Assembly (NCBI GenBank): GCA_045543955.1
Contig: JAZPYB010000023.1
Span: forward strand, 65,499-129,498
Length of the DNA: 64,000 bases
Source: Eubacteriales bacterium
Lineage (GTDB): Bacteria; Bacillota; Clostridia; Oscillospirales; CAG-272
Direction of reading: 5' to 3'
Position numbers and translations under genes: made by a program. Shown here one piece after another: positions 39,443 to 58,459 of this stretch. The notes under the pieces were generated by a model. The model was not told the origin of the DNA, ran no database searches, and was given only the letters and a program-made list of their open reading frames with translations. The stretch's first letter is position 1; every line of letters starts with the position of its first letter.

Positions 39443-39579
39443 AAGGCGACTCTCTTTCAATTAATACAAATTAAGTATAACACAACAAACTTCTAGTGTC
39501 AATCGATATTGACATTTACTATTGTAAATGGTAAAATTATGACAGGCTAATTTTATTCTATAGCCAAAGGAGTTTTTAA

Positions 39580-40875: not shown

Positions 40876-40884
40876 AAAATGAAG

Positions 40885-40915
40885 GGCAGACCACTTGATA
40901 TGGTCTGCCTTTTAT
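40885..40915 (+). terminator. rho-independent terminator
   Basis: ggcagacca-cttgata-tggtctgcc plus TTTTAT. Confidence 0.7.
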
Positions 40916-40946
40916 ATAAGCTATTATATTATAATTTATTTTAGTA

Positions 40947-40975
40947 TTGACAATTTATGTCGTATTTGCTAAAAT
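40947..40975 (+). promoter_or_regulatory. sigma-A-type promoter of the MoxR/VWA locus
   Basis: TTGACA (40947-52), 17-nt spacer, TGcTAAAAT extended -10 (40967-75). Confidence 0.55.
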
Positions 40976-41013
40976 ATATATACTTATAATAATATGCGTT
41001 TAGGAGGGTGATT

Positions 41014-42759
41014 ATGGATAAAGAAGTAAAAAATCCTATAAATCATTCCGTAAGCGAAGAAAATAAGGTGGAAAATGCCACAAAAGCTCCTGACAAGGAA
41101 GCGATTATACAAAAGGTAAAGGAAAAAACTGTTGAGCTCATAGAAAATGGCGAATACAAAAAGCCAAAGGCTCGAACTAGCACCTATAATCCACCTCAAA
41201 TACTTTTGCCTAAGGACGATTCTGAAGAAACAAAGAAAAAATATCTCGGATTTGGAAAATTTGAAAGGGAAGCTAATAAAGCAAGACATATAAAAGCGAT
41301 TTTTGCAGGGCTTTCATTGGCGTTTATAGTTAGTGGACTCTTGGTTATTCTTTCCAAGCTGGAAATTATAAATATCAATTATTGGATTACGATAGCAATA
41401 GCAATATGCTCGTTTTTTGTTGCTTGGACACCTGTGTTTATTATGTGCAGGTTCAATCTTGAAAAAACCGCAAAGCAGCTTGACCAAAGGTTTTCATTAA
41501 AGGAAAAATCTCAATCTACAATCGAAACCTTGAGAAACGACTCTGAAATGGGCGTTCTTTTGAGAAACGATTTAAGGAAAGAAATTGAGAAAATCGGAGC
41601 AAGTGAATTAAAGGCGCATAAATTCATTTGGATTTACGCGAGCGTGTTTATAATAAGCTGTGCGCTTCTTTTGACCGGAATAATAATTCCAAAAGAGCAT
41701 GTGGATAATTTGACAAGGCCACCTGTTACCAATACAGAATCTGATTATTTTGTTCTCAGCGAGGAAAATGAGGCTAAGCTTAATGAGCTTAAAGCAAGCG
41801 TTCAAAATTCAAGCATGGTTGAGGATGCAAAATCTGAAATCGTTACTGAAATTGACAATCTTTTAAAGCTTCTTAAAAACGTAAGAATGCTTAAAAAGGA
41901 TGCTGTTAATACGGCTAAGCTGACAGCAGATAAAATAGATACAATTACTATGGAAACAGGCTCACAACACGAGCTTTATACGGCGCTCAAAAAGCATGAC
42001 AGCGTATATACGAGAGAGTTTGCCCGACTGCTTTCAAAATTCAGCTGGGAAAAGCATCTGATAAAGCGAATGGAAGTACAGTCATTGTTTGTACATAAGG
42101 ACGAGGGAGCCGAGGTTCCCGACCTTGAGCAAATGAAAAAGGACACAATCAAGGCGCTAAATGATGCTTCTACTCATATGCTTTTAGCACTTGAGTCAGC
42201 AGATGTTCCATCAACCGACCCATTATATGAATTATTATATAAGTTTACAACCGAAAACGACCCATCAAATAAAGAAGCAAAGGGCGAGGGACTTTATGGT
42301 ACTAAAGAAATAGCAAGTGAGATGGAAAGCTTGTCGTATAGATGGGCACAAAAGAGGATAGAGGCTCTGTTCTCAATCTTAGGCGAGGATATATTTAGAG
42401 AGCTGGATTTACAAAATCAAAACTATTCAGTTGGCTATGGCGCAGCAAACAAAATCCGTTCAATGTTTGGCATTCCTAAAAAAGATATAGAGGACAACTC
42501 TAAGGAAGAAAAAGAGGAAGATGAGGAAGAAAAGACCCCACCAGAGGGCGCAGACGGCGGTGGTGGAGGCGGTCTTACCTTTGCCGGCGACGATGCTGTT
42601 TATGACAAGGACAAGTTGAGCCATGTTACATACGGCGACGTAATCAATACTTATTATATGCTAATGCAAAGCACTGACTATACACCTGAACAAAAGGCAG
42701 CAATCCAAAAATACTTTGAGACGCTTTTTGTGGGACTAGAAGAGAAAGATGAGGGTTAA
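41014..42759 (+). CDS. 3-TM membrane protein with a long helical C-terminal domain, hypothetical
   Basis: AGGAGG 41002-07 then ATG 41014. TM segments near aa 95-118, 126-148 and 205-227. Coiled-coil-like stretch, acidic EEKEEDEEEK, G6 tract. Confidence 0.6.
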   Translation: MDKEVKNPINHSVSEENKVENATKAPDKEAIIQKVKEKTVELIENGEYKKPKARTSTYNPPQILLPKDDSEETKKKYLGFGKFEREANKARHIKAIFAGLSLAFIVSGLLVILSKLEIININYWITIAIAICSFFVAWTPVFIMCRFNLEKTAKQLDQRFSLKEKSQSTIETLRNDSEMGVLLRNDLRKEIEKIGASELKAHKFIWIYASVFIISCALLLTGIIIPKEHVDNLTRPPVTNTESDYFVLSEENEAKLNELKASVQNSSMVEDAKSEIVTEIDNLLKLLKNVRMLKKDAVNTAKLTADKIDTITMETGSQHELYTALKKHDSVYTREFARLLSKFSWEKHLIKRMEVQSLFVHKDEGAEVPDLEQMKKDTIKALNDASTHMLLALESADVPSTDPLYELLYKFTTENDPSNKEAKGEGLYGTKEIASEMESLSYRWAQKRIEALFSILGEDIFRELDLQNQNYSVGYGAANKIRSMFGIPKKDIEDNSKEEKEEDEEEKTPPEGADGGGGGGLTFAGDDAVYDKDKLSHVTYGDVINTYYMLMQSTDYTPEQKAAIQKYFETLFVGLEEKDEG

Positions 42760-42762
42760 AAA

Positions 42763-43779
42763 ATGAGCAAAAATGAAATGAAAAATAGAGTAGCAACAGC
42801 TGAGGAGCTTGAAAAGGTAAAGCTATTTAGCGAAAAGGTTGCAAAAATCAAGGACGAATTAAAAAAGGACGTCGTTGGCCAAAAGGAAATTATTGATAAC
42901 GTTATTATTGCAATAGTAGCAGGTGGTAACGTTCTTTTGGAGGGTGTTCCTGGCGTTGGTAAGACACGTTTGGTTCGTTCACTTGGTAGAGTTCTTTCTC
43001 TCCCATTCTCACGTATTCAATTTACACCTGACCTTATGCCATCAGACGTTACAGGTACAAACATAGTTGAAAAGGATGAAAACGGCAGACTCAATACATC
43101 CTTTAGAAAGGGACCAATCTTTGCAAACCTTGTTTTAGCAGATGAAATCAACCGTGCAACTCCGAAAACACAATCAGCTATGCTTGAGGTAATGCAGGAG
43201 CACAAGGTTACAGTTGGTAACGACGTACATAAAATTGCTGAACCATTCTTTGTTTTGGCAACAGAAAACCCAATAGAGCAGGACGGTACATACCCACTTC
43301 CAGAGGCGCAAATGGACCGTTTCGTGTTCAAGCTAATTGTTAATTTCCCATCAGATGAGGAGCTAGCTGATATCGTTAAGATGACTCAAATTACACTTGA
43401 CGAAACAGCAACTGCCGTAATTGATGGCGATGAAATTTTGGAAATGAGAAGACTCGCTTCGGGAGTTATCGTTTCTGAAGACGTTCTTATGTATGCAATC
43501 AGACTCGTTTCTGGCACTCACCCAGAGCTTGATAAGTCTTGCGCTAGCACAAAGAAGTATGTAAAATATGGTGCTTCTCCCCGTGCTGGACAAGCGCTCA
43601 TTACATGCGCTAAGGCTAAGGCTCTTATGGAAGGCAGATATAATGTTTCTTATGACGATATTAATGAGCTTGCATACCCTGTACTTCGCCACAGAATTAA
43701 GATTAACTTCACAGCTGTAAACGACAAGCTTGGAGTAGATGATGTAATCTCAATGATAATAAAGGAAACTAAAAAATGA
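42763..43779 (+). CDS. MoxR-family AAA+ ATPase
   Basis: Walker A GVPGVGKT, Walker B LADEINRA, QSAMLEVMQE, and R-finger region GASPRAGQAL. Confidence 0.9.
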   Translation: MSKNEMKNRVATAEELEKVKLFSEKVAKIKDELKKDVVGQKEIIDNVIIAIVAGGNVLLEGVPGVGKTRLVRSLGRVLSLPFSRIQFTPDLMPSDVTGTNIVEKDENGRLNTSFRKGPIFANLVLADEINRATPKTQSAMLEVMQEHKVTVGNDVHKIAEPFFVLATENPIEQDGTYPLPEAQMDRFVFKLIVNFPSDEELADIVKMTQITLDETATAVIDGDEILEMRRLASGVIVSEDVLMYAIRLVSGTHPELDKSCASTKKYVKYGASPRAGQALITCAKAKALMEGRYNVSYDDINELAYPVLRHRIKINFTAVNDKLGVDDVISMIIKETKK

Positions 43780-44660
43780 GTAAATTCACGATAAATGAGG
43801 AGCTTTTGAGCGAGATAGAATCGCTTCAAAGCATTCTCAAAAACAATGTAGCCGGTATGTTTGGCGGAAATCGTCAATCAAAAAGCTTCGGTTCATCGTG
43901 TGAATTTGCAGATTATAGAGACTATCTCCCAGGAGATGATATAAACAGAATTGACTGGAATGCATATGCAAGATTTGATAAGCTTTACCAAAAGCTATAT
44001 TATGACGAGAGACAGATGCATACCAGAATATATATTGATGCCAGCCGTTCAATGTGCCACGGCAGTGATGAAAAAGCATCTCAAGCATTAAAAATTGCTG
44101 CGTGCTTGGCATATCTTTCCGTTTGTGAGATGGAAAAGGTTTCAATATATGCAATTCACGGCAAGGAAATCGAAGAGGTTATATCGGGTATGGTAGGCAA
44201 GGAGTCCTATATTACCTCTATAAATAAGCTCAATGACATAGAATTTGTTGGGGACAGCCATATTAGCGAGGCGATAATCCCTACAAATGTCGGCAGGGGC
44301 GACGGCTTTTCCGTTATAATTTCCGACTTTTTAACTGATGAAAATTACGAGAGTGCGATTGACCACCTCGTATCAAAGAAAAAGGATGTTATTTGCGTTC
44401 AAATTTTATCTCAAGAGGAATTAAATCCTCAAATGAGAGGAAAGATGCATCTTTTCGACTCGGAAAATGCAGCAAAAACATACCGTAAAAAAATAGACCA
44501 TGATATTGTCAAGGCTTATAAAGAGGCTTTGAAGTTCGTAATTGAAAGAATCAAGGGATACTGCGAGGCAAGAGGCGCTCAATACCTTTTAGCCCCGGCT
44601 AGCGCTAGCATTTACGAGGTATTCTTTGTCAAGCTAGTGGATATGGAGGTGCTTAAATGA
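43776..44660 (+). CDS. DUF58 domain protein (VWA-like, MoxR partner)
   Basis: FADYRDYLPGDDINRIDWNAYAR motif. ATGA overlap with moxR. Confidence 0.85.
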   Translation: MSKFTINEELLSEIESLQSILKNNVAGMFGGNRQSKSFGSSCEFADYRDYLPGDDINRIDWNAYARFDKLYQKLYYDERQMHTRIYIDASRSMCHGSDEKASQALKIAACLAYLSVCEMEKVSIYAIHGKEIEEVISGMVGKESYITSINKLNDIEFVGDSHISEAIIPTNVGRGDGFSVIISDFLTDENYESAIDHLVSKKKDVICVQILSQEELNPQMRGKMHLFDSENAAKTYRKKIDHDIVKAYKEALKFVIERIKGYCEARGAQYLLAPASASIYEVFFVKLVDMEVLK

Positions 44661-46537
44661 GCTTAATGTACCCTCTTTGTCTTCTCGCTCTTTTAGGTGT
44701 TCCTGTCGTTATTATAATTTACATTTTAAAAAGACAATACACAGAGCAGACAGTAAATTCGACATACATTTGGGAGCTAAGTGAGAAGTTCTTAAAAAGA
44801 AGAAATCCACTCAGTGGACTTACTGGCATAATCTCCTTGATTTTGCAAATCTTAATGATTGTTTTAATCGTTTTTGCGTTAATCCACCCACTTATTACTT
44901 TAAAAGGCGAGGCAGAGGAATACTGCTTTGTTCTTGATGCCTCCGGCAGTATGAATATGGCTGAGGAAGAGGAGTCAAGATTTGAACGTGGCAAGGACAA
45001 AATCGAACAAATGATTTCCGACTCAACTAAGGGCAGTGAATACACTCTTATTTGTATGGCTGATGAGGCGACAACTGTTTATGAGCGCTTAAATGATAAG
45101 GACATAGCTATAAAGCTGCTTAACGAGCTTGAGCCCGCATATTCAGGCTCAGATCACTTAAAGGGCGCAAGTGTCGCGCAAGAGCTTTTCAATCAAAGAC
45201 CATCTACAAAGGTATATCTTGTTACAGATAAGGTCTTTGCAATGAAGCAAAATGTTCAAATAATTAATGTTGCCGGCAACGAAAACAATGTTGGCATTAC
45301 AGATTTAGATGTTGTTTGCGAGGACAAGCAGCTCAAAATCAACGGAATTATCAATTCCTACAAAAAGCAAAACACAGTTACTATTGATATATATGTTGAT
45401 GATTCTCCTAGACCTTCAGCAAGTGCGACAGTTATGTCCCCACCACAAAGTGGAATGCCGGCAGGCATGGACACGCCATTTTCAGTTCCGCCAATTCCTT
45501 GTGAGGTAGGCACATATTCAAGCGTAAGAGCCGTTATAAGAAATGCAGATGCATTGATAGAGGACAACGAGATTGTTGTATATAACCAAGAAAGCAACGA
45601 CCAAAACTCAATTATATTAGTTAGTGAAGCACCTCTTTTTCTTGAGGTCGCAATAGATGCACTTGGAGATTATAGTGTGACAAGCGTTACACCTAGTGAA
45701 TACGAGGCTACATATAAGGATAAATCATACGGCTTATATATTTTCGACTCCTATTCTCCTGCTTCAACCCCTGATAATGGTGCTGTTTGGATGCTCAATA
45801 CAAGCACCAGTGTTCCAAATTCTGGATTTAGCTATCGCTCAAGCATAGAGCTAAAGGAGCCTTTGCAAATAGAAAAAACTACTAGCACAGCAACTCTGGC
45901 AAGAAAGCTTCTTGAGGGAATGGAAACCAAAGATATTTATTTGATTAAATATCTAAGATATAGCACCTACACAAATTACACAACACTGTTTTCACTAAAT
46001 GGCACACCGCTTGTTATGGCGGGTGAAAACTCACACGGAAATCGCTCCGTTGTTTTCGCATTTGATATACACGACTCAAATATTGCAATGACGGGAGATT
46101 TTGTTAACCTTTTAGGAAACCTCCTTGGCTACTCATTCCCGAGCGTGCTTGATAAAACAAGCTATGTTGTTGGCGATGATGTTACAATAAACACAGTTGC
46201 AAATAGCGAAAGCATAAAGGTTACATCACCTCTTGGCAATGTAAAATATTTAAACACTGAGCAAACAATTAATGAGTTCTCACTTGACGAGGTCGGCACT
46301 TACATAGTTAATGTAAATGTAGGCGACACAGAGAGTGAATATAAGATTTTCTCCGAGCTTAACTTGGAGGAGCGCTCCCCTAACAGGATAGAGCAAAACT
46401 TCAGCATATACGGTACACCTAGCAATGACCGTATAGATGGAGAATATGACCCTATGATAATTATATTTATTCTCATAGCGGTAATTTTCGCGGCGGATTG
46501 GATGGTGTATATGTATGAAAAACGTCAGCTTCGATAA
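44657..46537 (+). CDS. BatA-like protein: N-terminal double-TM (BatA_N) plus VWA plus C-terminal TM anchor
   Basis: MSLMYPLCLLALLGVPVVIIIYILKR start and second TM. MIDAS VLDASGSMN (44935-49). Terminal TM MIIIFILIAVIFAADWMVY. Confidence 0.8.
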   Translation: MSLMYPLCLLALLGVPVVIIIYILKRQYTEQTVNSTYIWELSEKFLKRRNPLSGLTGIISLILQILMIVLIVFALIHPLITLKGEAEEYCFVLDASGSMNMAEEEESRFERGKDKIEQMISDSTKGSEYTLICMADEATTVYERLNDKDIAIKLLNELEPAYSGSDHLKGASVAQELFNQRPSTKVYLVTDKVFAMKQNVQIINVAGNENNVGITDLDVVCEDKQLKINGIINSYKKQNTVTIDIYVDDSPRPSASATVMSPPQSGMPAGMDTPFSVPPIPCEVGTYSSVRAVIRNADALIEDNEIVVYNQESNDQNSIILVSEAPLFLEVAIDALGDYSVTSVTPSEYEATYKDKSYGLYIFDSYSPASTPDNGAVWMLNTSTSVPNSGFSYRSSIELKEPLQIEKTTSTATLARKLLEGMETKDIYLIKYLRYSTYTNYTTLFSLNGTPLVMAGENSHGNRSVVFAFDIHDSNIAMTGDFVNLLGNLLGYSFPSVLDKTSYVVGDDVTINTVANSESIKVTSPLGNVKYLNTEQTINEFSLDEVGTYIVNVNVGDTESEYKIFSELNLEERSPNRIEQNFSIYGTPSNDRIDGEYDPMIIIFILIAVIFAADWMVYMYEKRQLR

Positions 46538-49241
46538 TCCGTACCTATTATTACTAGCAATACCGCTTTTGCTTCTTGTTTTAATCCCGTTTGTTATAGC
46601 GATTAGAAAGGAAAACAGGAGCAAATCAACTGTTGCATCATTAGTAATTCACATCACTATTGTTGTTCTGGTTACCCTTGCCGCAGCAGGGACTATGATA
46701 ACGACAATATTAACAGAAACAACCGTATACGTGGTAGCGGATGTTTCGTATTCGGGCGAGAGAAATCTTGACCTAATAGACGAATATATTGACGAGCTTG
46801 AAAAAGAGCTACCAAAGAACACAAAGCTAGGTGTTGTTTGCTTTGGCGAAAATGCAGAGATTCTTTATCGCCCAGGCGAGGAAGCCAAAAGTGTAAGAGA
46901 ATCAACTGTTGTTAATTCAAGCACCGATATAGTAAATGCAATTAGATATACAAAAAATTTGTTTCCCGATGATTCTATAAAGAAAATGATTCTTATTTCG
47001 GATGGTAAGGACACCGATGCAAATGCAAGAGGCAAGCTTGTCTCCGAGGTTGAGTCACTAAAGCAAAGCAAGATTACACTTGATGCAATCTTCCTTGACA
47101 ACAATCTAAAGGAAACAGAAAAGGAAACTCAAATTTCCGACCTTGAAAGAGCAGAGACTGTATATCTTGATAGCAAGGTTACAGCAAAGGCGTTGATACA
47201 AGCAAACTATGACGGGGCAGCAAAAATAACCCTTTCAGTTAAAGAGCCTGATAGCAACACATATGTTGAAATGCCATATATTATGCAGGACCTCTATCAC
47301 GGCTATAATATGGTTGAGCTGCCACTCAGCACTCAAAAGGTTGGAATTTATGACTACAAGCTAGAAATTGAAAGCACAAATGATATTTGGGAGCAAAACA
47401 ACGTTTATACCTTTGCTCAAGAGGTAAAGGATGAGCTCAAGGTGATGCTTTTGACAGGCTTGCAGGAGGATGTTGATGCAGTAAACAAGCTCTATGAGGG
47501 CAAGGCAACTGTTGACGCATTCCTAATAAATAAAAAGGTACAGGACGAAATTCCTTACACAGTAGAGGAGCTTTGTCAGTACGACGAGTTTATCATTTCC
47601 AATATTGATATAAGAAGCGTTACAAATATCACATCATTTTTAAATGCTGTTGAAATTGTTGTTTCTCAATTTGGCAAAACCTTAACAACAATGGGCAATT
47701 TGGAAATTCAAAACAAGGATGACGGCACACTTGGTGCACTGGGAGAGATGCTTCCTATTAACTATGGAAATGCAAATGCCGACGCAAAGCTATATGTTTT
47801 AGTGCTCGACACCTCTCACAGTATGAATCAAGCCTCAAAGCTTCCTACAATGAAGGAGGCGGCAAAGTCTCTTCTTTCCTTGCTAAGCGATACCGATACA
47901 GTTGCACTTGTTACATTCTCTGGCGATGTTGAAACACGTCAGCCACCTGTTCAGCTTGGCACAAAGAGACAAGAAATAATCGATACAATCGATGGTCTTA
48001 AGCCATCACAAGGTACATTCCTTGGTACAGCCTTAAAGAGTGCTTACGATATTTCTAAGCTGTTTGAGGCTGGCGAAAAGCAGGTTATGCTTATTTCCGA
48101 CGGTAAGACTAATGATTACGATATCGATGGAGAGCTTGTGGCTACCCAAATGGGAGCAGAGGAGATAGTTGCATCTACAATAAATATGCTCAACACAAAT
48201 GACGAAAAGGCGACAAAGCTTCTTTCAAACATTGCTAAAAAGTCAGGCGGCAACTACTATCCGGTTTCCGACCTTTCAAAAATTGACGAGCTTATTTTTG
48301 CCGACATTGCTGATGATATGACCGAAGCAATAGTTGAGGCTGAAACAAGCGTAAACATAAAGCAAATCAAGGATATGCTTTTGGTTGGCGATGACGACTC
48401 ATATGAAAACGACATCACCTTTATTGAAAACATTTTCGGCTTTGTACAAACGGGCAACAAGCTCGATGCGACAGTTGTTTTAACAGCTGATTACGTAAAG
48501 GACGAGGATGTTGTTGTAGAGGTTCCTTTGTATTCATATCGTGACTATGGTAATGGAAGAGTAGCAACCTTCACAAGTAGCCTAGGCAACAGCTGGCTTG
48601 ATGGCTGGAGTGACGAGTTTAAAGACCTACTCTTTGGCAATATGTTAATTCAAAACAGACCCGAAGAGAAGATAGTGAATCCATTTGAAATTGAAATAGA
48701 TTATGATGGATTAAATTCAAGGCTTTTAATAACTCCCGCCGCTTTACGCACAGATGCGCAGGTTTTAGTAAAAATCACCTCCTTTGATGGCAAGATTTTG
48801 ACAATTACCCCAGCAAGTCAAGAGGGCGAAACCGCAAGCCCATATTCACAAATGTATTTCGATACTCAAAAATATTATTTCGACGTACAAACCAAGGAGG
48901 TTGGTAGATACGATATAGAGATAATATACAATTACAACCAAAGCAAAGACGGCGCATATTCAAATTCAATAACCACAAATGCTTTCTTTGACGTATCATA
49001 TTCGCCTGAATATAATGCATATGAAACATTCTCGGCATCCAGTCTTCACGCGTTTGTTGACGGGGAGGTTGTTGAGGGCTCAGGACTCAAGATTACAAAT
49101 GATGAAGATGAGCTAGCTACATACGAATATCGCTTCACAATACCATTCTTAATAATTGCGATGGTTCTATTCCTAATAGATATCGCGATAAGAGTGCTTA
49201 AATTCAACAAAAAAGCCAAGACAAAGGGGGAGAAAATATGA
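46515..49241 (+). CDS. BatB-like protein: BatA_N double-TM plus two VWA domains plus C-terminal TM anchor
   Basis: F.NPYLLLLAIPLLLLVLIP start. DVSYS (about 46740) and DTSHS (47809-23) MIDAS motifs, each followed by an ..LISDGK.. motif. Terminal TM. 23-nt overlap with the upstream gene. Confidence 0.8.
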   Translation: MKNVSFDNPYLLLLAIPLLLLVLIPFVIAIRKENRSKSTVASLVIHITIVVLVTLAAAGTMITTILTETTVYVVADVSYSGERNLDLIDEYIDELEKELPKNTKLGVVCFGENAEILYRPGEEAKSVRESTVVNSSTDIVNAIRYTKNLFPDDSIKKMILISDGKDTDANARGKLVSEVESLKQSKITLDAIFLDNNLKETEKETQISDLERAETVYLDSKVTAKALIQANYDGAAKITLSVKEPDSNTYVEMPYIMQDLYHGYNMVELPLSTQKVGIYDYKLEIESTNDIWEQNNVYTFAQEVKDELKVMLLTGLQEDVDAVNKLYEGKATVDAFLINKKVQDEIPYTVEELCQYDEFIISNIDIRSVTNITSFLNAVEIVVSQFGKTLTTMGNLEIQNKDDGTLGALGEMLPINYGNANADAKLYVLVLDTSHSMNQASKLPTMKEAAKSLLSLLSDTDTVALVTFSGDVETRQPPVQLGTKRQEIIDTIDGLKPSQGTFLGTALKSAYDISKLFEAGEKQVMLISDGKTNDYDIDGELVATQMGAEEIVASTINMLNTNDEKATKLLSNIAKKSGGNYYPVSDLSKIDELIFADIADDMTEAIVEAETSVNIKQIKDMLLVGDDDSYENDITFIENIFGFVQTGNKLDATVVLTADYVKDEDVVVEVPLYSYRDYGNGRVATFTSSLGNSWLDGWSDEFKDLLFGNMLIQNRPEEKIVNPFEIEIDYDGLNSRLLITPAALRTDAQVLVKITSFDGKILTITPASQEGETASPYSQMYFDTQKYYFDVQTKEVGRYDIEIIYNYNQSKDGAYSNSITTNAFFDVSYSPEYNAYETFSASSLHAFVDGEVVEGSGLKITNDEDELATYEYRFTIPFLIIAMVLFLIDIAIRVLKFNKKAKTKGEKI

Positions 49242-50953
49242 GAATAGCTAATAAGCTTATAGCACTGATTTTAGCGCTAACATTCATTCTTTCCCTCTGT
49301 GCTTGTGGCACCTTCAAGCCGGCAATCGACTCTGATAGTGACTCAAATACAGACACAGAGCCTGGTATAATCGGCACAGATACCTCAACAGAAACAGAGA
49401 CAGATTCGGACATAGGCGCAGATTTTGATATTGAAAATAGTGGCTACACCGAGGATGATTTTACTGTTGCTTTAAGATATAATGGAGAAAAGTATATTCC
49501 AGACGAGGAAATCCTTGTTTATTGGAAAAACGCTAACACCTTAGAGACCTGTCAAATAAACAAAAAGGGCTTTGCAGGTACATCTAAGCTGGATGGCGAC
49601 TATCGTGTTACTCTTTCTCACGTTCCCGAGGGAATGGCATATAATCCAAATGTACACGAGGCAACAAACGATAATAAGCACATTATAATTGACATTTATG
49701 ACTTGGTTGTTACTAAGAAAGTAGGCACAGACCAAAGAAACCCTGAAGCCTACCCAAACCAAGGAAGAAAGCTTAATAGAATTGCGGTATACAGTGTTAC
49801 CTTAAATAGTAAATCTCAAACCATTTATTTCGACTTCACACCAAGAGACGAGGGCGATTATAAAATCGAGAGCTGGATGGACACAACAGCCGAGCAATAT
49901 AATCCATATTGCGAGGCTTATACAGGCTCAATTGTATATAAGCGCCACGATGGAACAGTTGACGGTGGTGGAGCTGAGGGGCTTTATACTAAAAATTTCT
50001 TGAATGGTATAACCGTTAGTAAGGATATGATAGGCAACGTGCTAACCTTTGGCATTCACGTTGATTCCAAAAACGCAGACAACTATCCTGTTGATGTTGT
50101 TTTTGCGATAACTCTTAATGACGGCTTTGAGCCACCAAAGAAGTCAGAATACACAATGTACGCACCAGAGGATCCTGATGCCTATTTAGATGGAATGCGC
50201 TACTATGGTAGTGAATATGAAATTAAATATCCTGAAAAAGAAATGCCTGGCAGAAATACATATTACTTTAAGGAAGAGAACTTCCAGCTATGGACAAAGG
50301 AATCCGGCGGAGACGGTTATTACCACGTTTATGATATGGAAAAATATAGCCGAGATAATTATCCAAATGGATACGAGGCTGGCTATCCCGAGGGCTATGG
50401 ACCTATTCTGTATGCAAACATAAGCGTGCCTTGTCGCTTCCTTGATAGACCCTTTACTTTTTTTGAAATAGAGAGTAAGCCATTATCAATTAAGGTTAGC
50501 GAGGATTTGAAAATCAACTATAAGCACTTTATAGAGGGCTATGATGCGTTGGCGGAAAGAATTTATGACCCGCCAATGGGTGGCTATACATCAAGCTATT
50601 ATTGCTTCCGTGATTGCCCGTGTCATCCAACAGACCAAATTTATAACTATGCTTGTCCCGAGGGATGTACAAACTGCCTACCTGACTGTCGTCAGGTTGA
50701 CAACGATTTGATTGTAGGCTATAGAGATGATGGAAGCCCGATATACTTTGCTGGCTTGTCTCACTACGTAAATAACGATGGTGGAGTTGCAGTAACGGAG
50801 GAGTTAAAAACCTTCTTATATAGACTAAGCGTAGCACAAAGATACTTTGCCGATGGAGATGGCTGGGTTGAAACACATCCTAAACTTAATATCGACTCCT
50901 CGGACGAAGCACAATGGCTTTTTGCGTGTTATTATTACGAGCTAGTAAAATAA
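49238..50953 (+). CDS. lipoprotein with a C-terminal 8-Cys cluster, hypothetical
   Basis: MRIANKLIALILALTFILSLCACG lipobox and a D/S/T linker. YYCFRDCPCHPTDQIYNYACPEGCTNCLPDCRQ. ATGA overlap with the upstream gene. Confidence 0.6.
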   Translation: MRIANKLIALILALTFILSLCACGTFKPAIDSDSDSNTDTEPGIIGTDTSTETETDSDIGADFDIENSGYTEDDFTVALRYNGEKYIPDEEILVYWKNANTLETCQINKKGFAGTSKLDGDYRVTLSHVPEGMAYNPNVHEATNDNKHIIIDIYDLVVTKKVGTDQRNPEAYPNQGRKLNRIAVYSVTLNSKSQTIYFDFTPRDEGDYKIESWMDTTAEQYNPYCEAYTGSIVYKRHDGTVDGGGAEGLYTKNFLNGITVSKDMIGNVLTFGIHVDSKNADNYPVDVVFAITLNDGFEPPKKSEYTMYAPEDPDAYLDGMRYYGSEYEIKYPEKEMPGRNTYYFKEENFQLWTKESGGDGYYHVYDMEKYSRDNYPNGYEAGYPEGYGPILYANISVPCRFLDRPFTFFEIESKPLSIKVSEDLKINYKHFIEGYDALAERIYDPPMGGYTSSYYCFRDCPCHPTDQIYNYACPEGCTNCLPDCRQVDNDLIVGYRDDGSPIYFAGLSHYVNNDGGVAVTEELKTFLYRLSVAQRYFADGDGWVETHPKLNIDSSDEAQWLFACYYYELVK

Positions 50954-50978
50954 TTTGCAAAAATATTAGAAAATAATA

Positions 50979-51007
50979 TACAAAAATGTATTATTTTATG
51001 TTATAAT
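50979..51007 (+). promoter_or_regulatory. possible internal promoter (extended -10) for the giant lipoprotein gene
   Basis: TGtTATAAT at 50999-51007. The -35 (tacaaa) is weak. The context is AT-rich, so this could be fortuitous. Confidence 0.3.
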
Positions 51008-51104
51008 ATAATTTACCTAAAATATACTTCAAATTTCTTTTATTCATTTTGGTTTCAATTAGATTTTTGAAATATATAAATTATTTTTAAGGAGGTCCTT
51101 TCAA

Positions 51105-54100
51105 ATGAAAAGGAAACTAGCACTTATTGTATGTGTTATAGCTCTCTTTGCAATGATCTTTACACTCGCATCATGCGGTGGAGACGGCGACAAAGATCAT
51201 ACACATACATATGCGCAAGCTTGGAGCTCCAATAATGCAGGACACTGGTACGCAGCTACCTGTGGATGCGAGGGAGAGGTTTCAAACTATGGCGCGCACG
51301 TCGATGCTAACAAGGACGGCAAGTGTGACACATGTGCTTTTGTAACATGTACTCATACATATGCCGAGGAATGGCAAAGCGACGAAACAAATCACTGGAA
51401 TAACCCAACCTGTGGTTGTAATGTTAAGGGTTCATTCGGCGCTCACGCTGATGCTAATAAGGACGGTAAATGTGATACATGCGCTTATGTAATGTGCGCT
51501 CACACATATGCTGACACTTATTCAAGCGATGCTACAAATCACTGGTTCGCAGCTAACTGCGGATGCCAAGTAGCAGGCAAGGGCACAGAAAAGCACATTG
51601 ACGAAGTACTTGACGGTATTTGCGACAAGTGTCAATACGTAATGTGCACACACACCGACCTAGTAGGTGGTGTAAATGGTGGTAAAAACGGTCTTTGCGA
51701 TGACTGTGGCTTTGTAATGTGCGAGCATGAATATGACACAGTATGGTCAAAGGACGAAACAAACCACTGGAAAGAGCTAAAATGTGGATGCGACGTTGAA
51801 AACGAAAGCGTAGCAGCTCACGTTGCTGTTGTAGGCGATGTTGATACAAAATGTGGCGATTGTGGTTACGTTATTTGCGAAAAACACACATTTGCATCCG
51901 AAAAGGTTGGCAATGACACACACCACTGGTACAAGGCTACATGTGGATGTGACACAATAAAGGGCAAGGAAGCTCATATTTGGGCTAACGAATGGTCTGA
52001 CGATGCATCTAATCACTGGCACGCAGTTACATGCGGATGTGATGCTCCAAACAAGGATACGGCAGCTCACATCGATGCAACAGGCGGAGAAAAGGGTGGC
52101 AAGGATGGTATATGCGACATCTGTTCACGTGAGATGCACAAGCACACCTATGAAGAGAAATATGAAAAGAATGGTTCACACCACTGGTATGTACCAACAT
52201 GTGGATGTGATTTAAGACTCTCACTTGAAGAGCACGAAGATGCAGACGGTGACTTTTTCTGTGATAAATGCTCAAAAGAGGTTCATGAGCATACTTATTC
52301 AGACACAAAGGTATGGGATGCTACACATCACTGGTATCCTTCAACCTGTGGCTGTGAAGATATGAAGAAGGCTTATGAAGAGCACACATGGGCAGAAGTA
52401 TGGTCAAGCGATGCAACAGGACACTGGTACGCAGCTGACTGTGGATGCGACGTTAAAAAGCTTGAGGCAAGCCACGTTGACCTAGAAGGCAACGAGCTTG
52501 ATGGAAAGCAAGATGGTAAGTGTGACGTTTGTGCATTTGTTGTTTGTGAGCACGTTGATGTAGAGGGTGGCGAAAACGGCGGCAAAAACGGCGTTTGCGA
52601 TAACTGTGGCGCAGTAAGCTGTCTACACAATTATTCTAACGAGATAACAAGCAATGCTACACATCACTGGTACGCAGCTATCTGTGGATGCGACGTTGTT
52701 AAAGACAAGGGCGAGCACTACACAACAGATGGAGCTTTGGAAAACGACGAAAATGACCACTGGTATGTTTGCGACGAGTGCGAAGAGGTATATGACAAAG
52801 TAGCACACGTTGACGTTGACCTAAACAAGGATGGCGTTTGTGATGATTGTGAGTATGTAATTTGTACACACACATTTGCAACTGAATTGTCAAAGAATGA
52901 GCTTTATCACTGGTACGACGCAACTTGTGGATGCTACGTTAACAAGGATCTTGCAGCGCACGATGCTGACGAATGTTCAGTTTGTGGATTTAAGTCCGAA
53001 ATTAAAGAAACAATCGATAACCTCGACAGCGAGGCTTCACTCAATACAAACTCCACAGAATCAATAAAGGACAAGGGAGCAATCTTATCATATGAGGATA
53101 ACTACACATATGAGGTTTTAGAGGATGGCAGACTTTCTCTTTACAATGATTGGGGAGAAATGCAATATATCTACATCACTCTTACAGATGGAGTTCCAAC
53201 CTTAATTGATGATGTTTATGGCAATGGCGAAAATGCTCTTGTTCCTGTTGACGGAGAAGATGGAGCATACTATTATACAAAGGGTATATACACCTATACT
53301 ATAAAAGTTGACGAAACAAGCAATGTTGTAATCATGGAAACAGCTTGGTCAGCGGAAAAATATAGCTATTACAAGGTTTACGACAACTACTTGGTTGTTA
53401 GCGATATTTATGGTAACGTTAAATACTATTCATATTACGGTGAAAACGGCGATCTTCTCTTCGTTATGACAGTAGATGAATATGGCAATGTAAACAGAGA
53501 AACCGATGCTTCAGAGCTTGGTGCAATTGCAAACTACAATGCAGTTTACTGGAACGTTCAAGCATCTAACCACGAGGACTTTATTAAGGGACTTTACAAT
53601 CTTGGCGTAAACGGCACATCTTTAGGAACAAGCTATGGCTTTGTTGGTGCTGAAAACGAGGGCGCTTACTCATTCTCATACCTCTACGTTGAGGAAGGTA
53701 TGTATTTCGTTATAGAAGTATCATTTACTGTTGATAGTGATGTAAACGGTATTTCATCTGCTAATGTATCAATTAAACAATACAACGAAAGCAGCATAAC
53801 CTTGAATCCTGCAGCTGATACATATGCAGTAGCAGAAGAAGCAGAGACTGACGGCTCTGAAACCTATGAAATCACTCAAACATTTGGTGATCCAATGGAT
53901 TCAACAAGCAATCCTAACCCATACCCAGCATCAGATTATATCGTAACTGATTTCACACTCACAGACGGAACAAATGTTTACGAGGACGGCGATGAAATCG
54001 AGCTTGATGCAATGGAAGAGCTAGTTCTCAACTTCAATGCTGAAATTGCTGACAAGATTGGCTTCAACATAGTTGATGCTACAGCAACAACAAGCGATGG

Positions 54101-56153
54101 CGCAGAGCTTTCTAGCTGGTCATCACAAGGTACTATTAATGTAAATACTTGGGCAGACCCACTCGCTATTGAATTTGTTGGTAAGCAAGCAGATACATTT
54201 ACAATAGTTATAGATGTTGAGGGAACAACCTTGACACTTACAGCAAAGGTTAACTACCTAACACCTGATTCAATCGACTCCGTTGTTTACGACGAGGATG
54301 ATGAAAAGGTTATAACAAGCGAATACACAATCTATAGAGGTCAAGCTCTTAAGATTACAGCTTCAGTTGCTGCAGGCTGCAACCCAGCATTCACAGCAAC
54401 ACTTCCACAAGGCGCAGCTGCTGCTCTTACAGACAATGAAGATGGCACATACACATTCACACCTGTAATGGCTGGCGAATTTGAAATTACATTAACATCA
54501 ACAGCTGCTGCCGGCGTTTCAACAGTTCTTACTGTTACCGTTGAAGAGCCACCGGCAATCAGTGATGTTCTTAACGGCACTCACACAGGCGATAATATGT
54601 ATTCAGGTCTTACTGTAGGCGCTACATTTACTCCAAGCGAGGAAGGTGCGGAGACTGGTACAGTAGTTGTTACTGTAAGTGGTGAAATGTTCAGCTATGC
54701 AACTTGGGAGTGGGAAATTATTGAATATTCCGCAACATATACATATGCATACAACGATGGCGCAATTGAGCTCACATATGTTGAGGGCGATGAGTTGGAG
54801 GTTGAACTTTTTGTTAATAACTACAAGGTTGTAGCAATTTATGAGTTCAATGAATACAAGCTTGTACAAGAAGAACAAGAGCCAGAAAATCCAGATGGAC
54901 CAGTTGTTGGCGGAGCTACAGAAAGCCCAATTACTGTAACAATGACAGGTGCTTATACATATTGCTATGAGTACACATTTACATTCGTAGCAGGCGATGC
55001 AGGCTATTACACATTTACAGTTCCTTCAGGCTTTGGTGTTATGAGCGAGGCGGATTATCAAAATTACGGCTCAGCATACGTTGACTTCCAAATGGACGAT
55101 GGTGGAACATTCACAATTCAACTTTCAGAGGGTGCGTCGTTTGCACTTCGCTTTGGTTCATTGGATGCTAAGGATTATGAGCTTTCATTCACATACTCAG
55201 CAACCGACCCAGAGGGTGGAAATGCTGGCGATACAACAACAGGTCTTGAGGGCACATATACAGCAGCAGATGACTGGGACAACTCATTCGATGTTGTTAT
55301 TACAGGTACAACAATCACATTTACACCTGCTGGTGCAACAGACCCAATTTCATACACATATCAATATGCAAATGGTGTAGCTACCTATTTCGATTCACTT
55401 GGTGTGCAAGTAACAATGGGAATGCAATTCTCACTCACTATTACTGATGGTGAAGTAACAGGTATGACATACAACGGAACTGGTTATACTCTTACAAATC
55501 AAGACTCTTCAAATGAAGATGACGACGACAACCAAGGCTCAGTAGAGGCTATCACAGGTGACGGCTCAGAAGAAAATCCATTTGTTATCGCAGGCGCAGG
55601 CTCAACAATGATTTCTGCTAATAAATTCATGCCTTTATTTGTAAAAGTAAATGCAGGAGTGACAGTTACTCTTCCAGCGGGTGCTCAATTCTATACTGAC
55701 CCAACAGATACAACAACAGCAGTTGGTGCAACAGTAACACCTGATATAGATACACTTTATTATGTATATGCAGATTCAATGGCTGGTTGCATGGGCAATC
55801 TTACAGCAACTGTAGGCGGTAATGATGGTGGCAATACAATTACTGGTAGCGGAACAGAGGGCGATCCATTTGTTCTTACAACAGCTGGTGATTATGTTTG
55901 TGAATTCCCTGGCGGATTTACACCTATTTGGTATGTATATACAGCAGAGGCTGATGGAAGCCTTACACTTTCATCAACATATGAAAACGCTTGGCTTGGT
56001 GTAGCAGAAGATGCTATGACTGCTAACAATACTCATAACGAGGGCGTTGGCTCAAAAACCATTTCCGTAACCGCAGGTGAAACATATTACATTATGGTTG
56101 GAGATTGGAATGAAGCAGCTATGGACGTTCCATTTACAATCACTATAGCATAA
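51105..56153 (+). CDS. giant (1682 aa) surface lipoprotein: N-terminal Cys/His-rich repeat array plus a T/G/E/Y-rich beta-type region
   Basis: AAGGAGG RBS and lipobox FTLASCG. Repeats described separately. Uninterrupted ORF. Confidence 0.75.
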   Translation: MKRKLALIVCVIALFAMIFTLASCGGDGDKDHTHTYAQAWSSNNAGHWYAATCGCEGEVSNYGAHVDANKDGKCDTCAFVTCTHTYAEEWQSDETNHWNNPTCGCNVKGSFGAHADANKDGKCDTCAYVMCAHTYADTYSSDATNHWFAANCGCQVAGKGTEKHIDEVLDGICDKCQYVMCTHTDLVGGVNGGKNGLCDDCGFVMCEHEYDTVWSKDETNHWKELKCGCDVENESVAAHVAVVGDVDTKCGDCGYVICEKHTFASEKVGNDTHHWYKATCGCDTIKGKEAHIWANEWSDDASNHWHAVTCGCDAPNKDTAAHIDATGGEKGGKDGICDICSREMHKHTYEEKYEKNGSHHWYVPTCGCDLRLSLEEHEDADGDFFCDKCSKEVHEHTYSDTKVWDATHHWYPSTCGCEDMKKAYEEHTWAEVWSSDATGHWYAADCGCDVKKLEASHVDLEGNELDGKQDGKCDVCAFVVCEHVDVEGGENGGKNGVCDNCGAVSCLHNYSNEITSNATHHWYAAICGCDVVKDKGEHYTTDGALENDENDHWYVCDECEEVYDKVAHVDVDLNKDGVCDDCEYVICTHTFATELSKNELYHWYDATCGCYVNKDLAAHDADECSVCGFKSEIKETIDNLDSEASLNTNSTESIKDKGAILSYEDNYTYEVLEDGRLSLYNDWGEMQYIYITLTDGVPTLIDDVYGNGENALVPVDGEDGAYYYTKGIYTYTIKVDETSNVVIMETAWSAEKYSYYKVYDNYLVVSDIYGNVKYYSYYGENGDLLFVMTVDEYGNVNRETDASELGAIANYNAVYWNVQASNHEDFIKGLYNLGVNGTSLGTSYGFVGAENEGAYSFSYLYVEEGMYFVIEVSFTVDSDVNGISSANVSIKQYNESSITLNPAADTYAVAEEAETDGSETYEITQTFGDPMDSTSNPNPYPASDYIVTDFTLTDGTNVYEDGDEIELDAMEELVLNFNAEIADKIGFNIVDATATTSDGAELSSWSSQGTINVNTWADPLAIEFVGKQADTFTIVIDVEGTTLTLTAKVNYLTPDSIDSVVYDEDDEKVITSEYTIYRGQALKITASVAAGCNPAFTATLPQGAAAALTDNEDGTYTFTPVMAGEFEITLTSTAAAGVSTVLTVTVEEPPAISDVLNGTHTGDNMYSGLTVGATFTPSEEGAETGTVVVTVSGEMFSYATWEWEIIEYSATYTYAYNDGAIELTYVEGDELEVELFVNNYKVVAIYEFNEYKLVQEEQEPENPDGPVVGGATESPITVTMTGAYTYCYEYTFTFVAGDAGYYTFTVPSGFGVMSEADYQNYGSAYVDFQMDDGGTFTIQLSEGASFALRFGSLDAKDYELSFTYSATDPEGGNAGDTTTGLEGTYTAADDWDNSFDVVITGTTITFTPAGATDPISYTYQYANGVATYFDSLGVQVTMGMQFSLTITDGEVTGMTYNGTGYTLTNQDSSNEDDDDNQGSVEAITGDGSEENPFVIAGAGSTMISANKFMPLFVKVNAGVTVTLPAGAQFYTDPTDTTTAVGATVTPDIDTLYYVYADSMAGCMGNLTATVGGNDGGNTITGSGTEGDPFVLTTAGDYVCEFPGGFTPIWYVYTAEADGSLTLSSTYENAWLGVAEDAMTANNTHNEGVGSKTISVTAGETYYIMVGDWNEAAMDVPFTITIA
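51198..53000 (+). repeat. intragenic array of about 11 diverged 30-80 aa Cys/His repeats
   Basis: 11 copies of H-x-[YFW]-x(9-10)-H-W-x4-C-G-C. 12 C-x-x-C pairs, mostly in a DG-x-C-D-x-C-x4-C context. Confidence 0.85.
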
Positions 56154-56174
56154 TCATAAGTTAATGATTAAACA

Positions 56175-56210
56175 AAAAAGCACACCGAGGCAACTCGGTG
56201 TGTTTTTATT
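56175..56210 (+). terminator. rho-independent terminator ending the locus
   Basis: cacaccgag-gcaa-ctcggtgtg plus TTTTT. Confidence 0.75.
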
Positions 56211-56213
56211 TAT

Positions 56214-56242
56214 ATAATAAAAAGGCTCCCACTGGGAGCCTT
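56214..56242 (-). terminator. rho-independent terminator for the minus-strand two-component operon
   Basis: ggctccc-act-gggagcc with a T-run on the minus strand. Confidence 0.6.
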
Positions 56243-56246
56243 TAAT

Positions 56247-56292
56247 TAATCTTGATTTTTCTCAATCTTAAACTCAAACCAGAAGGTAGAGC
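56247..56292 (-). repeat. diverged duplicate of the histidine-kinase 3' end (would encode ...STFWFEFKIEKNQD*)
   Basis: cttaaactcaaaccagaaggtagagc is identical to 56370-56395. The flanks are about 80% similar. Confidence 0.8.
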
Positions 56293-56295
56293 TTA

Positions 56296-56342
56296 GCCGC
56301 CCTTGTGCAAAGGGAGGGGGACCACTTGTGGTGGAGGGATTG
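56296..56342. repeat. GC-rich double-hairpin intergenic element, copy A
   Basis: gccgcccttgtgcaaagggagggggaccacttgtggtggagggatt. Same architecture as 63783-63830. Confidence 0.6.
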
Positions 56343-56354
56343 AGAGCAAACATC

Positions 56355-57770: not shown

Positions 57771-58459
57771 TTTTCCTCAAAGCGGTAGCCCATACCACGA
57801 ATAGTAACAATAAAGCTGCTATATTTACCCAGGCTCTTTCTTAGAATCTTGATGTGAGTATCAAGGGTTCTGTCATCCCCAAAGAAATCATAGCCCCAAA
57901 CATCAGAGAGAAGCTTGTCACGTGAAAGAGCTATATTTTTATTCTTTAACATATAGAAAAATAGTTCATATTCCTTTGGTGACATATCAATTCTTTCGCC
58001 GTCGATATAAACAATACGTGCGGTTAAATCGGCAACCAAGCCACCATTTGCTAGGGAGATAATTTCGTTTTTATTTTCTTCTGTCTTTTGAGGCTTAGCC
58101 TTGGAGCGCTTCATAATAGCCTCAACACGGAGCATAAGCTCCTTAGGAGAGAAGGGCTTGACAACATAGTCGTCAATGCCAATTTCAAAGCCGTTAATTT
58201 TATCATATTCCTCGCCACGGGCAGAGAGCATAATGATAGGAACATCACTAGTTTCACGAATTTTGCGGCTAGCAGTAAAGCCATCAAGCTCTGGCATCAT
58301 AATGTCCATAATTATAATATCAAATTCGCCATGAGAAAACTTGTTAACCGCATCCATACCATCAACAGCCTCAGTTACTGAAAAACCGTCAAATTCAGCG
58401 TATTTGCGGATTAGCTTTCTTATCATTTCCTCATCGTCAACAATTAAAATGTTATACAT
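57767..58459 (-). CDS. OmpR-family response regulator
   Basis: ILIVDDEE...DIIIMDIMMPELDG receiver plus a winged-helix C-terminus (RGMGYRF). 4-nt overlap with the kinase gene. Confidence 0.85.
   Translation of the reverse strand: MYNILIVDDEEMIRKLIRKYAEFDGFSVTEAVDGMDAVNKFSHGEFDIIIMDIMMPELDGFTASRKIRETSDVPIIMLSARGEEYDKINGFEIGIDDYVVKPFSPKELMLRVEAIMKRSKAKPQKTEENKNEIISLANGGLVADLTARIVYIDGERIDMSPKEYELFFYMLKNKNIALSRDKLLSDVWGYDFFGDDRTLDTHIKILRKSLGKYSSFIVTIRGMGYRFEEK

Follow-up and report, generated by a model that had tools for sequence, protein, structure and literature searches.

A conserved MoxR-DUF58-VWA cassette with three undescribed accessory families in uncultured gut Clostridia

A 64,000-nucleotide stretch of DNA from an uncultured member of the Eubacteriales (GenBank assembly GCA_045543955.1, contig JAZPYB010000023.1), here called the window and numbered from its first letter, carries a cassette of seven + strand genes, g1 to g7. 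In order, these encode a three-transmembrane helical protein, a MoxR-type AAA+ ATPase, a DUF58 protein, two membrane proteins with von Willebrand factor A (VWA) domains and two predicted lipoproteins. The core of the cassette is of a well-known kind, and its novelty lies in the accessory set (g1, g6 and g7) and in the monoderm setting. Our general model, to which we give a probability of roughly 0.55, is that MoxR and DUF58 act as a motor and adaptor coupled through cytoplasmic loops to an outer VWA scaffold that holds the lipoproteins; we are much less confident of any particular contact within it. To our knowledge, few conserved bacterial gene clusters are as widespread as the MoxR-DUF58-BatA/B modules, which after 25 years are still without a mechanism. 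The cassette had been outlined in a preliminary description made from the letters of the window, and here we report the computational analysis that followed it up.

One line of evidence for this model is the constancy of the seven-gene unit. A one-genome-per-species scan turned up 96 g6 relatives among 185,579 species, and 80 loci were retrieved; cassette genes were counted by tblastn with the seven window proteins, and loci with at least 8.4 kb 5' of g6 were regarded as upstream-informative. Genes g1 to g5 were present in order and on the same strand in 64/64 such loci, g1 being the first cassette gene in every one of them. The tblastn search alone gave 62/64, the other two loci (L055 and L084) having been missed by its sensitivity, and both encode clear g1 homologues. 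A g7 homologue follows g6 in all 74 loci with downstream room, and the 23-nt overlap between g4 and g5 (46515-46537) is present in 72 of 74 related loci. The genes that flank the cassette in the window recur only in the 11 closest loci. Three distant homologues of g6 (35-44% identity) on long metagenomic contigs each lie within the same seven-gene arrangement; the first gene product is of ~500 aa and the last of 1200-1770 aa, both are without a Pfam domain, and their homology to g1 and g7 was confirmed by BLASTP. The flanking genes differ among these three contigs. Since the order is kept while the flanks change, the conserved unit is the cassette rather than the neighbourhood, and this unity supports the model. 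The preliminary description had staked its proposal on the linkage of the accessory genes to the MoxR core, and their synteny proved strict across about 80 species-level genomes with changing flanks.

The carriers are all metagenome-assembled genomes (MAGs) from gut samples (ruminant, deer, chicken and others), and their labels read Clostridia, Eubacteriales, Oscillospiraceae or 'Ca. Scatosoma'. Measured against the window protein, identity ranges over 68-95% for MoxR, 61-90% for DUF58, 36-74% for g4 and g5, 31-64% for g6 and 21-60% for g1, and g7 is conserved in patches only. The parts that face the conserved cytoplasmic pair are conserved, and the outward-facing parts evolve fast. A tblastn search of plasmids with g4 gave no match, with g5 and DUF58 as queries nothing beyond classical Bat operons and lone VWA genes came up, and the cassette found no match among viral contigs. 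A search of the literature and databases yielded no paper or entry describing this composition, in line with what had been supposed.

The seven open reading frames (ORFs) span 41014-56153, and the ORF listing reproduced the same-strand arrangement and all the junctions reported before. A 3-nt gap separates g1 from g2 (42759/42763), 4-nt ATGA overlaps join g2 to g3 (43776), g3 to g4 (44657) and g5 to g6 (49238), and a gap of 151 nt (50953/51105) lies between g6 and g7. Four overlapped or near-abutting junctions were taken as translational coupling. The start of g1, previously placed at GTG 41008, was moved to ATG 41014, which lies 6 nt downstream of AGGAGG and gives 581 aa matching the public protein P0122.

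The MoxR and DUF58 core was borne out by profile searches with hidden Markov models. The g2 product matches the full Pfam AAA_3 profile (3.9e-60) and AAA_lid_2 (4.5e-17), with a much weaker secondary match to bpMoxR (1.5e-16), and the g3 product matches DUF58 (1.8e-27) over profile positions 1-209 of 216. Compared with their counterparts in annotated Bat operons, g2 shows 38-42% and g3 28-31% identity. Neither protein has a predicted transmembrane (TM) segment, and both are therefore placed in the cytoplasm. The metal-ion-dependent adhesion site (MIDAS) of g3, D88/S90/S92, is retained in 68-69 of 69 orthologues.

The scaffold of the model would be formed by g4 and g5. For g4, Pfam gives BatA (PF07584) at 5.1e-9 and VWA_2 at 4e-11, and the NCBIfam model TIGR02226 scores 21.6 bits, under its cut-off of 23.05. 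In g5 there are two separate VWA_2 stretches (Pfam) with a GATase1_like domain between them, the latter recognised in 23/29 g5 orthologues (best E-value 1.8e-8); the solved structures closest in sequence to the second stretch, VWA2, are BatB 3ibs (8.4e-5) and 4jdu. The preliminary description had assigned BatA_N-type N-termini to both proteins; Pfam supports this for g4, and for g5 it comes down to a resemblance, the BatA_N profile being absent from g5 and from all 29 g5 orthologues scanned. An hhalign comparison nevertheless relates g4 to the N-terminal third of g5 (probability 97.9%), and on this alignment g4 is taken to be a paralogue of that third. The three DxSxS motifs already noticed in the two proteins (g4 D94, g5 D76 and g5 D432) are invariant in every complete orthologue (75/75 for both g5 motifs), and D88 of DUF58 adds a fourth, so that the cassette holds four invariant MIDAS motifs in total. 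A further DVSYS at residue 826 of g5 was considered as an additional ectodomain MIDAS and rejected, as the motif is not conserved among orthologues.

Both VWA proteins are predicted to have two N-terminal TMs with a K/R-rich loop between them, a large middle region, a C-terminal TM and a basic tail. The positive-inside rule predicts that the middle regions, with their VWA/MIDAS domains, are extracellular. The BatA-like protein BB0173 of Borrelia, whose topology was mapped by experiment, crosses the membrane with three TMs and has its VWA domain in the periplasm (PMC5700661), and the predicted topology of g4 and g5 agrees with it. Large extracytoplasmic parts had been expected in the preliminary description, and they are predicted here for the VWA domains, the C-terminal domain of g1, g6 and g7. 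Conservation scores within g4 are 0.84 for the cytoplasmic loop, 0.88 for the C-terminal tail and 0.57 for the VWA domain. Residues 608-626 of g4 (46480-46537) make up a near-invariant cytoplasmic C-terminal peptide, DWMVYxYEKxQLR-COOH, unusually conserved for a short tail. This peptide is a candidate docking site for the MoxR/DUF58 pair.

The three accessory proteins remain as unassigned as they had been: g1, g6 and g7 have no match in Pfam (to E <= 10 for g6 and g7), NCBIfam or PDB sequences, the g1 profile drawing only designed helical bundles from the last of these. The g1 protein is predicted to have a cytoplasmic N-terminus, three TMs and a 61-residue cytoplasmic TM2-TM3 loop, in which A153, D157 and E164 are invariant in the family. 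Its predicted ectodomain consists of a helical domain of ~270 residues, an acidic/Gly-rich linker and the C-terminal motif GSDDxVYDP...YG...YF..L; this motif and the cytoplasmic loop are the most conserved parts. An exhaustive profile search (E <= 1e-3) gave a family of 830 clusters at 50% identity, and the best 150 of these are of similar length and architecture throughout, with no Pfam domain in those scanned. A word-indexed profile search with the g1 alignment had given 9 matches, from which the distant P0128 and P0129 were dropped on account of their unrelated neighbourhoods. When 31 g1 homologues were searched against Pfam at E <= 10 for a known family, only TM and coiled-coil noise was returned, and a lone VMAP-M1 match (0.0065) in one of the 31 was likewise treated as noise. 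As a Bat accessory protein g1 was rejected, hhalign being negative against DUF4381, BatD (probability 0.3%) and a Parabacteroides hypothetical protein. A kinship with DUF4175/TIGR02302-type proteins was suspected, for which Pfam gives no match.

Some variation was seen at the N-terminus of the g1 family. A K/E-rich cytoplasmic extension, residues 1-80 in the window protein (41014-41250), is limited to the closest subclade, most homologues starting at about residue 80, and the representatives P0167, P0188, P0195 and P0197 carry an N-terminal extension of ~200 aa without a Pfam match. The homologue P0125 is called 'YrzE family protein' by NCBI; since NCBIfam and Pfam support no g1 family, this name probably derives from a weak match in the TM region.

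The lipobox of g6 is L-C-A-C23, its Cys23 being invariant in 32 sequences, and that of g7 is L-A-S-C24. By signal peptide and lipobox both are lipoproteins, with lipidation predicted, and together with their Cys and Cys/His features this confirmed the earlier reading of g6 as a Cys-cluster and g7 as a Cys/His-repeat lipoprotein. The g6 protein is made up of a disordered, acidic Asp/Thr/Ser-rich linker, two beta-sandwiches and a C-terminal Cys domain, and it has an invariant cluster of eight Cys (C456, C460, C462, C473, C477, C480, C484 and C564) with an adjacent His. At least 206 homologues were found, none of them named. In the AlphaFold2 model of g6 (mean predicted local distance difference test, pLDDT, 79.8) the C-terminal domain is well modelled, and Foldseek found no PDB structural neighbour for it. 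For the beta-sandwiches, Foldseek returned the collagen-binding domain of a collagenase, the C-terminal domain of the C. perfringens enterotoxin and an accessory domain of a rhamnogalacturonan lyase (E-values 1e-6 to 1e-3); the structure search thus gave binding-type beta-sandwiches only and no enzyme signature.

The first ~600 residues of the g7 protein are built from about 12 copies of a module of ~50 aa with the pattern HxHxY...W..D...HW....CGC......HxD.N.DG.CDxC. Its residues 1-640 contain 56 Cys and 43 His, and the remaining ~1040 residues, which are beta-rich, only 4 Cys and 3 His. There are ~11 CxC and 12 CxxC pairs, and each module has three conserved His and one Asp; the positions conserved across homologues are the three His, the Trp, CxC (or CxH), HxD and CDxC. 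The pattern fits one Cys4-type site and one His/Asp site, with DxNxDG as a Ca-loop-like turn, and the DxNxDG loops gave sub-threshold EF-hand and dockerin Ca-loop matches only (Pfam, E <= 10). A c-type haem or ferredoxin motif was considered for the repeat and rejected: CxxCH does not occur, and a lone Fer4 label on one fragment reflects Cys spacing only. A confident three-repeat model (pLDDT 84.9) shows a small three-stranded sheet per module and has no PDB structural neighbour (best Foldseek E-value 1.2). Homologues of g7 are of ~650-1950 aa, the part beyond the repeats varying strongly between species in both sequence and length.

In metagenomes, this module (residues 27-630 of g7, 51183-53000) makes up the N-terminal region of numerous small lipoproteins and of some proteins with a C-terminal TM anchor (P0133-P0151). 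Homologues of the module also start with lipoprotein signal peptides, and the ~50-residue unit, for which Pfam, PDB sequences and PDB folds gave no match, appears to be a separate undescribed extracytoplasmic domain family. In 23/53 loci an eighth gene, absent from the window, follows ~170 nt past g7 (e.g. L005:17448-18494); its product is a lipoprotein of ~348 aa with the motif H.D.DGD..CD.CG, like half a g7 module. Further repeat-bearing genes lie downstream of g7 in L077, L079, L080 and L084, and none in the window.

The coordinates of the genes and signals are collected in Table 1. The main promoter is one of the two top-scoring sites in an 18-kb scan. Promoter-like sites as a class are not enriched over shuffled sequence (49 observed vs 47.2 +/- 6.9 expected), so that a match by itself is weak evidence and the weight comes from the conservation of the hexamers, both of which are kept in four species with diverged spacer and surrounding intergenic sequence. 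The claim of one strong promoter thus stood as regards the site and had to be amended as regards the number, since g7 has a conserved extended -10. The conservation of this element, TGTTATAAT, in the g6-g7 spacer indicates that g7 probably has its own promoter besides the main one, and a TGnTAnAAT match was found in 29/62 g6-g7 spacers of related loci. Between this -10 and the ribosome-binding site of g7 lies an inverted repeat that may be an operator. Folded as RNA, the 5' untranslated region of g7 with the repeat is about as stable as shuffled sequence (z = -0.91), which makes a DNA operator likelier than an RNA hairpin, and a search for riboswitches and leader RNAs gave no Rfam match in 40000-57000. 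An 18-kb terminator scan detected no internal terminator in the cassette and none in the g6-g7 spacer. The strong terminator reported at the end of the cassette was recovered as the top match, and a second hairpin at 56221-56243 is the terminator of a convergent - strand operon.

Table 1. Genes and predicted signals of the cassette, in window numbering
Feature	Position	Strand	Basis
Main sigma-70-type promoter, TTGACA-17-TG-n-TAAAAT	40947..40975	+	Score 11/12 and conservation
g1, 581-aa three-TM protein, undescribed family	41014..42759	+	Ribosome-binding site, database protein P0122, family alignment
g2, MoxR-type AAA+ ATPase, Walker A GVPGVGKT, Walker B LADEINRA	42763..43779	+	Pfam AAA_3, AAA_lid_2
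g3, DUF58 protein (VWA-like), MIDAS DASRS at residue 88	43776..44660	+	Pfam DUF58
g4, 626-aa protein: BatA_N double-TM anchor, VWA (DASGS at 94), beta-rich region, C-terminal TM, tail YEKxQLR	44657..46537	+	Pfam and topology
g5, 908-aa protein: two TMs, VWA1 (DVSYS at 76), GATase1-like, VWA2 (DTSHS at 432), beta-rich region, C-terminal TM, K-rich tail	46515..49241	+	Pfam and topology
g6, 571-aa predicted lipoprotein, lipid-attachment Cys23, undescribed family	49238..50953	+	Homologue alignment, AlphaFold2, Foldseek
Probable internal g7 promoter, extended -10 TGTTATAAT	50999..51007	+	Kept in 5/5 close species, adjacent bases vary
Inverted repeat TTTCAA-N8-TTGAAA between internal -10 and g7 ribosome-binding site	51053..51072	.	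Arms kept in five species, spacer varies
g7, 1682-aa predicted lipoprotein (Cys24), ~12 Cys/His modules in residues 30-630	51105..56153	+	Repeat map, homologues
Intrinsic terminator closing the cassette	56176..56207	+	14-bp stem, 6 G-C pairs, T run; rank 1 terminator match

In the mechanism that we propose, the seven proteins would make up one apparatus across the cytoplasmic membrane, and the MoxR hexamer would act through the DUF58 MIDAS adaptor, following the general rule for MoxR/VWA systems (PMC7159879). DUF58 would dock on conserved cytoplasmic pieces, namely the BatA_N loop and the YEKxQLR tail of g4 and the g1 loop with D157 and E164, and possibly also on the loops and tails of g5. ATP-driven remodelling of these pieces would then set the assembly or conformation of the outer scaffold; the preliminary description had likewise suggested an assembly driven or matured by the ATPase. 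Outside the cell, the three MIDAS sites of g4 and g5 could hold acidic peptides, candidates being the Asp-rich linkers found in g6 and g7 and, in g1, the GSDDxVYD tail. The outcome would be an organised display of g6 and the hypervariable g7 on the cell surface, g6 serving as a conserved binding-type subunit and g7 as a fast-evolving surface component with an additional promoter. The likely role is to build or maintain a complex of the surface or envelope that would serve envelope integrity and/or host or particle binding in the gut; a catalytic role of the cassette is less likely. Besides the unity of the cassette, the model draws on the coupled junctions, the domain identities, the four invariant MIDAS motifs, the predicted topology, the gradient of conservation, the binding-type folds of g6 and the peptide-gripping principle of MoxR-VWA pairs, and Arc2 of P. 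aeruginosa (PMC8926400) offers a precedent for an envelope role.

Several points weigh against this model. Its carriers are all uncultured MAGs, and the system is known from genes and predictions alone, the topology of g1, g4 and g5 being among the latter. The acidic-peptide ligands are guesses made from conservation. It would have to be explained how a cytoplasmic ATPase acts on the ectodomains through loops of 9-60 residues, a puzzle that is the same in classical Bat systems. Finally, g7 may be a cargo or a loosely linked partner and not a structural subunit, given its own promoter and its poor conservation. A bolder version of the model, which we regard as improbable, would make the cassette an integrin-like 'inside-out' apparatus of monoderms, in which MoxR-DUF58 would use ATP, by way of the conserved cytoplasmic loops and tails, to switch or assemble the extracellular MIDAS domains (g4, g5) and thereby control the display or the metal-dependent maturation of g7 and g6; it would bring with it two new extracellular metal-binding folds.

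Among the explanations that compete with the model, the closest at hand is a plain orthologue of the Bacteroides/spirochaete Bat operon, serving tolerance of O2 or oxidative stress, in which the accessory proteins replace BatC, BatD and BatE. The order MoxR-DUF58-VWA-VWA is that of annotated Bat operons, the identities of 38-42% (MoxR) and 28-31% (DUF58) are in keeping with it, g4 has the Pfam BatA N-terminal domain, VWA2 of g5 is nearest to BatB among solved structures, and the carriers are gut anaerobes. We nevertheless judge it unlikely, because BatC, BatD, BatE and the DUF4381-type protein are absent, hhalign linked g1 to none of BatD, DUF4381 and the hypothetical protein of Parabacteroides, and g4 and g5 are far longer than BatA and BatB and contain extra domains. 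The function to be inherited is moreover itself in question, the abstract of PMC3557215 stating that no specific function has been shown by experiment for Bat. Metal handling, with MoxR and the VWA proteins loading or maintaining a metal (probably Zn) in g6 and g7 on the pattern of CoxD/E, NorQ/D and the chelatases, is in our estimation a doubtful explanation. Many MoxR-class ATPases serve metal-cofactor insertion. This role is mentioned in passing in PMC8926400, and the dense CxC and CxxC pairs with His and Asp in the g7 modules, the invariant eight-Cys cluster of g6 beside a His and the weak, sub-threshold EF-hand and dockerin Ca-loop matches of the DxNxDG loops would all suit it. ATP is hydrolysed in the cytoplasm, however, and the Cys/His domains lie outside; Pfam found neither a metal transporter nor a known metallochaperone domain in the cassette, the repeat module also occurs in lipoproteins beyond the seven-gene block, and structural Zn sites or disulfides usually require no dedicated ATPase.

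Far less probable is a MoxR-vWA 'ternary' system for conflict or defence, in which g7 would be the hypervariable effector or sensor. This reading draws on the bpMoxR match of g2 (1.5e-16), on the high variability of g7 in length and sequence and on the known regulation of diversifying conflict systems by MoxR-vWA pairs (PMC7159879). The AAA_3 match is far above that to bpMoxR, though, and PADLOC models yielded generic, weak AAA+ matches only. Pfam detected no VMAP, iSTAND, FtsH, beta-propeller, peptidase or nuclease component among the seven proteins, the VWA domains are predicted to be extracellular, and the loci lie in ordinary chromosomal settings among housekeeping genes, with no viral-contig match. 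That g1, g6 and g7 have nothing to do with a four-gene MoxR core and stand beside it through an artefact of local gene order can hardly be credited: the separate promoter of g7 and the 151-nt gap preceding it would allow such a reading, but order and strand are kept in every informative locus down to 31% (g6) and ~21% (g1) identity while the flanks differ, and g1/g2 and g5/g6 abut or overlap.

The genes on either side of the cassette are shared by its closest relatives only. In the upstream flank (37082-40875), GH95 and GH29 alpha-L-fucosidases lie back to back, the second being the gene already named as GH29, and their linkage to the cassette is confined to those relatives; the pair fits foraging on host glycans (fucose). 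Downstream, on the - strand and convergent with the cassette, 56355-59800 encodes a histidine kinase (HAMP/HisKA), an OmpR-type response regulator and an HtrA-like trypsin protease, which look like a secretion- or envelope-stress module of the CssRS/HtrA type. Since no more than the 11 closest loci have this module next to the cassette, the module is probably not a part of the cassette.

For the question posed by Bat-type systems, the cassette offers a simpler layout, with one membrane and no periplasm. It also supplies candidate partners or clients for MoxR and DUF58, namely the conserved lipoprotein g6, the hypervariable lipoprotein g7 and the three-TM helical g1. The conserved cytoplasmic loops and tails mark where the ATPase could couple, and the question becomes one of specific interaction pairs. 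For a large uncultured gut lineage, three unannotated families are added, comprising the 830 clusters of g1, the homologues of g6 (at least 206) and the new ~50-residue module of g7.

Of the known systems, the Bat operon is the nearest. In annotated examples (Parabacteroides, Rhizobium, Agrobacterium, Cetobacterium) the order is MoxR-DUF58-(DUF4381 or hypothetical)-VWA-VWA-(TPR)-BatD, and the cassette shares MoxR-DUF58-VWA-VWA with these and with the spirochaete operons (Borrelia BB0170-BB0176, Leptospira). The likeness extends to the BatA_N double-TM anchor of g4 and to VWA domains outside the cytoplasm, a placement mapped in BB0173 and predicted in the cassette. BatD (PF13584-type) is absent from the seven proteins, Pfam giving none (g1, g6 and g7 searched to E <= 10) and BLASTP no similarity to three BatD proteins. 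No tetratricopeptide repeat (TPR) family was matched in the seven either, nor was there BLASTP similarity to BatC or BatE of Parabacteroides, in agreement with the earlier view of a Bat-like MoxR/DUF58/VWA module without TPR-type BatC and BatE, and DUF4381 is likewise absent from the seven cassette proteins. The VWA proteins of the cassette, at 626 and 908 aa against ~330, are two to three times as long as BatA and BatB; g5 adds a second VWA and a GATase1-like domain, g4 and g5 add a C-terminal TM anchor, and g1, g6 and g7 add three undescribed families. The host is a monoderm, without a periplasm or outer membrane to bridge. Lacking the BatC, BatD and BatE features, the cassette is set apart from the Bat operon.

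Clusters of MoxR with VWA membrane proteins also include the 'broadly conserved operon' RL3499-RL3502 of Rhizobium leguminosarum and Arc2 of P. aeruginosa (PA4317-PA4323), which were compared by their descriptions only. The RL3499-RL3502 operon was reportedly tied to envelope integrity by Vanderlinde et al. in 2011. RL3499 is cited in PMC5700661, and Arc2, whose genes include MoxR and one for a VWF-domain protein, gives protection from a toxin that targets the envelope (PMC8926400). The hosts of both clusters are diderm, in contrast to that of the cassette, and their accessory genes are different, with no g1-, g6- or g7-type proteins reported. Monoderm examples are yeaC-yeaD-yebA of B. subtilis and PFNA of Bifidobacterium, which resemble the cassette in joining a cytoplasmic MoxR and DUF58 to a large membrane or surface protein; for the PFNA surface FN3 protein, the abstracts of PMC8430577 and PMC12607495 give adhesion or cytokine-binding roles. 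Pfam found no transglutaminase, FN3 or Ser/Thr kinase domain in the seven cassette proteins, whose membrane partners are of the BatA/VWA type instead, and without a transglutaminase the cassette is not of the MoxR-DUF58-transglutaminase type.

More widely, RavA-ViaA, CbbQ-CbbO, NorQ-NorD, CoxD-CoxE, BchI-BchD and Rea1/midasin all pair an AAA+ ring with a MIDAS-bearing VWA adaptor. MoxR-class rings work with VWA co-chaperones whose MIDAS takes hold of an extended peptide by an acidic residue (PMC7159879). In these characterised pairs the client and the adaptor share the compartment of the ATPase, whereas in the cassette three of the four MIDAS domains are predicted to be separated from the ATPase by the membrane. 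Inside-out signalling by integrins offers an analogy only, with its extracellular MIDAS (I-domain type), TM anchors and short conserved cytoplasmic tails, on which the inside of the cell could act; homology is limited to the VWA fold, and affinity switching would be no more than analogous for the cassette. On the best reading of these comparisons, the cassette partly belongs to, and probably works like, the MoxR-DUF58-BatA/B class, of which it is a lineage-specific monoderm version.

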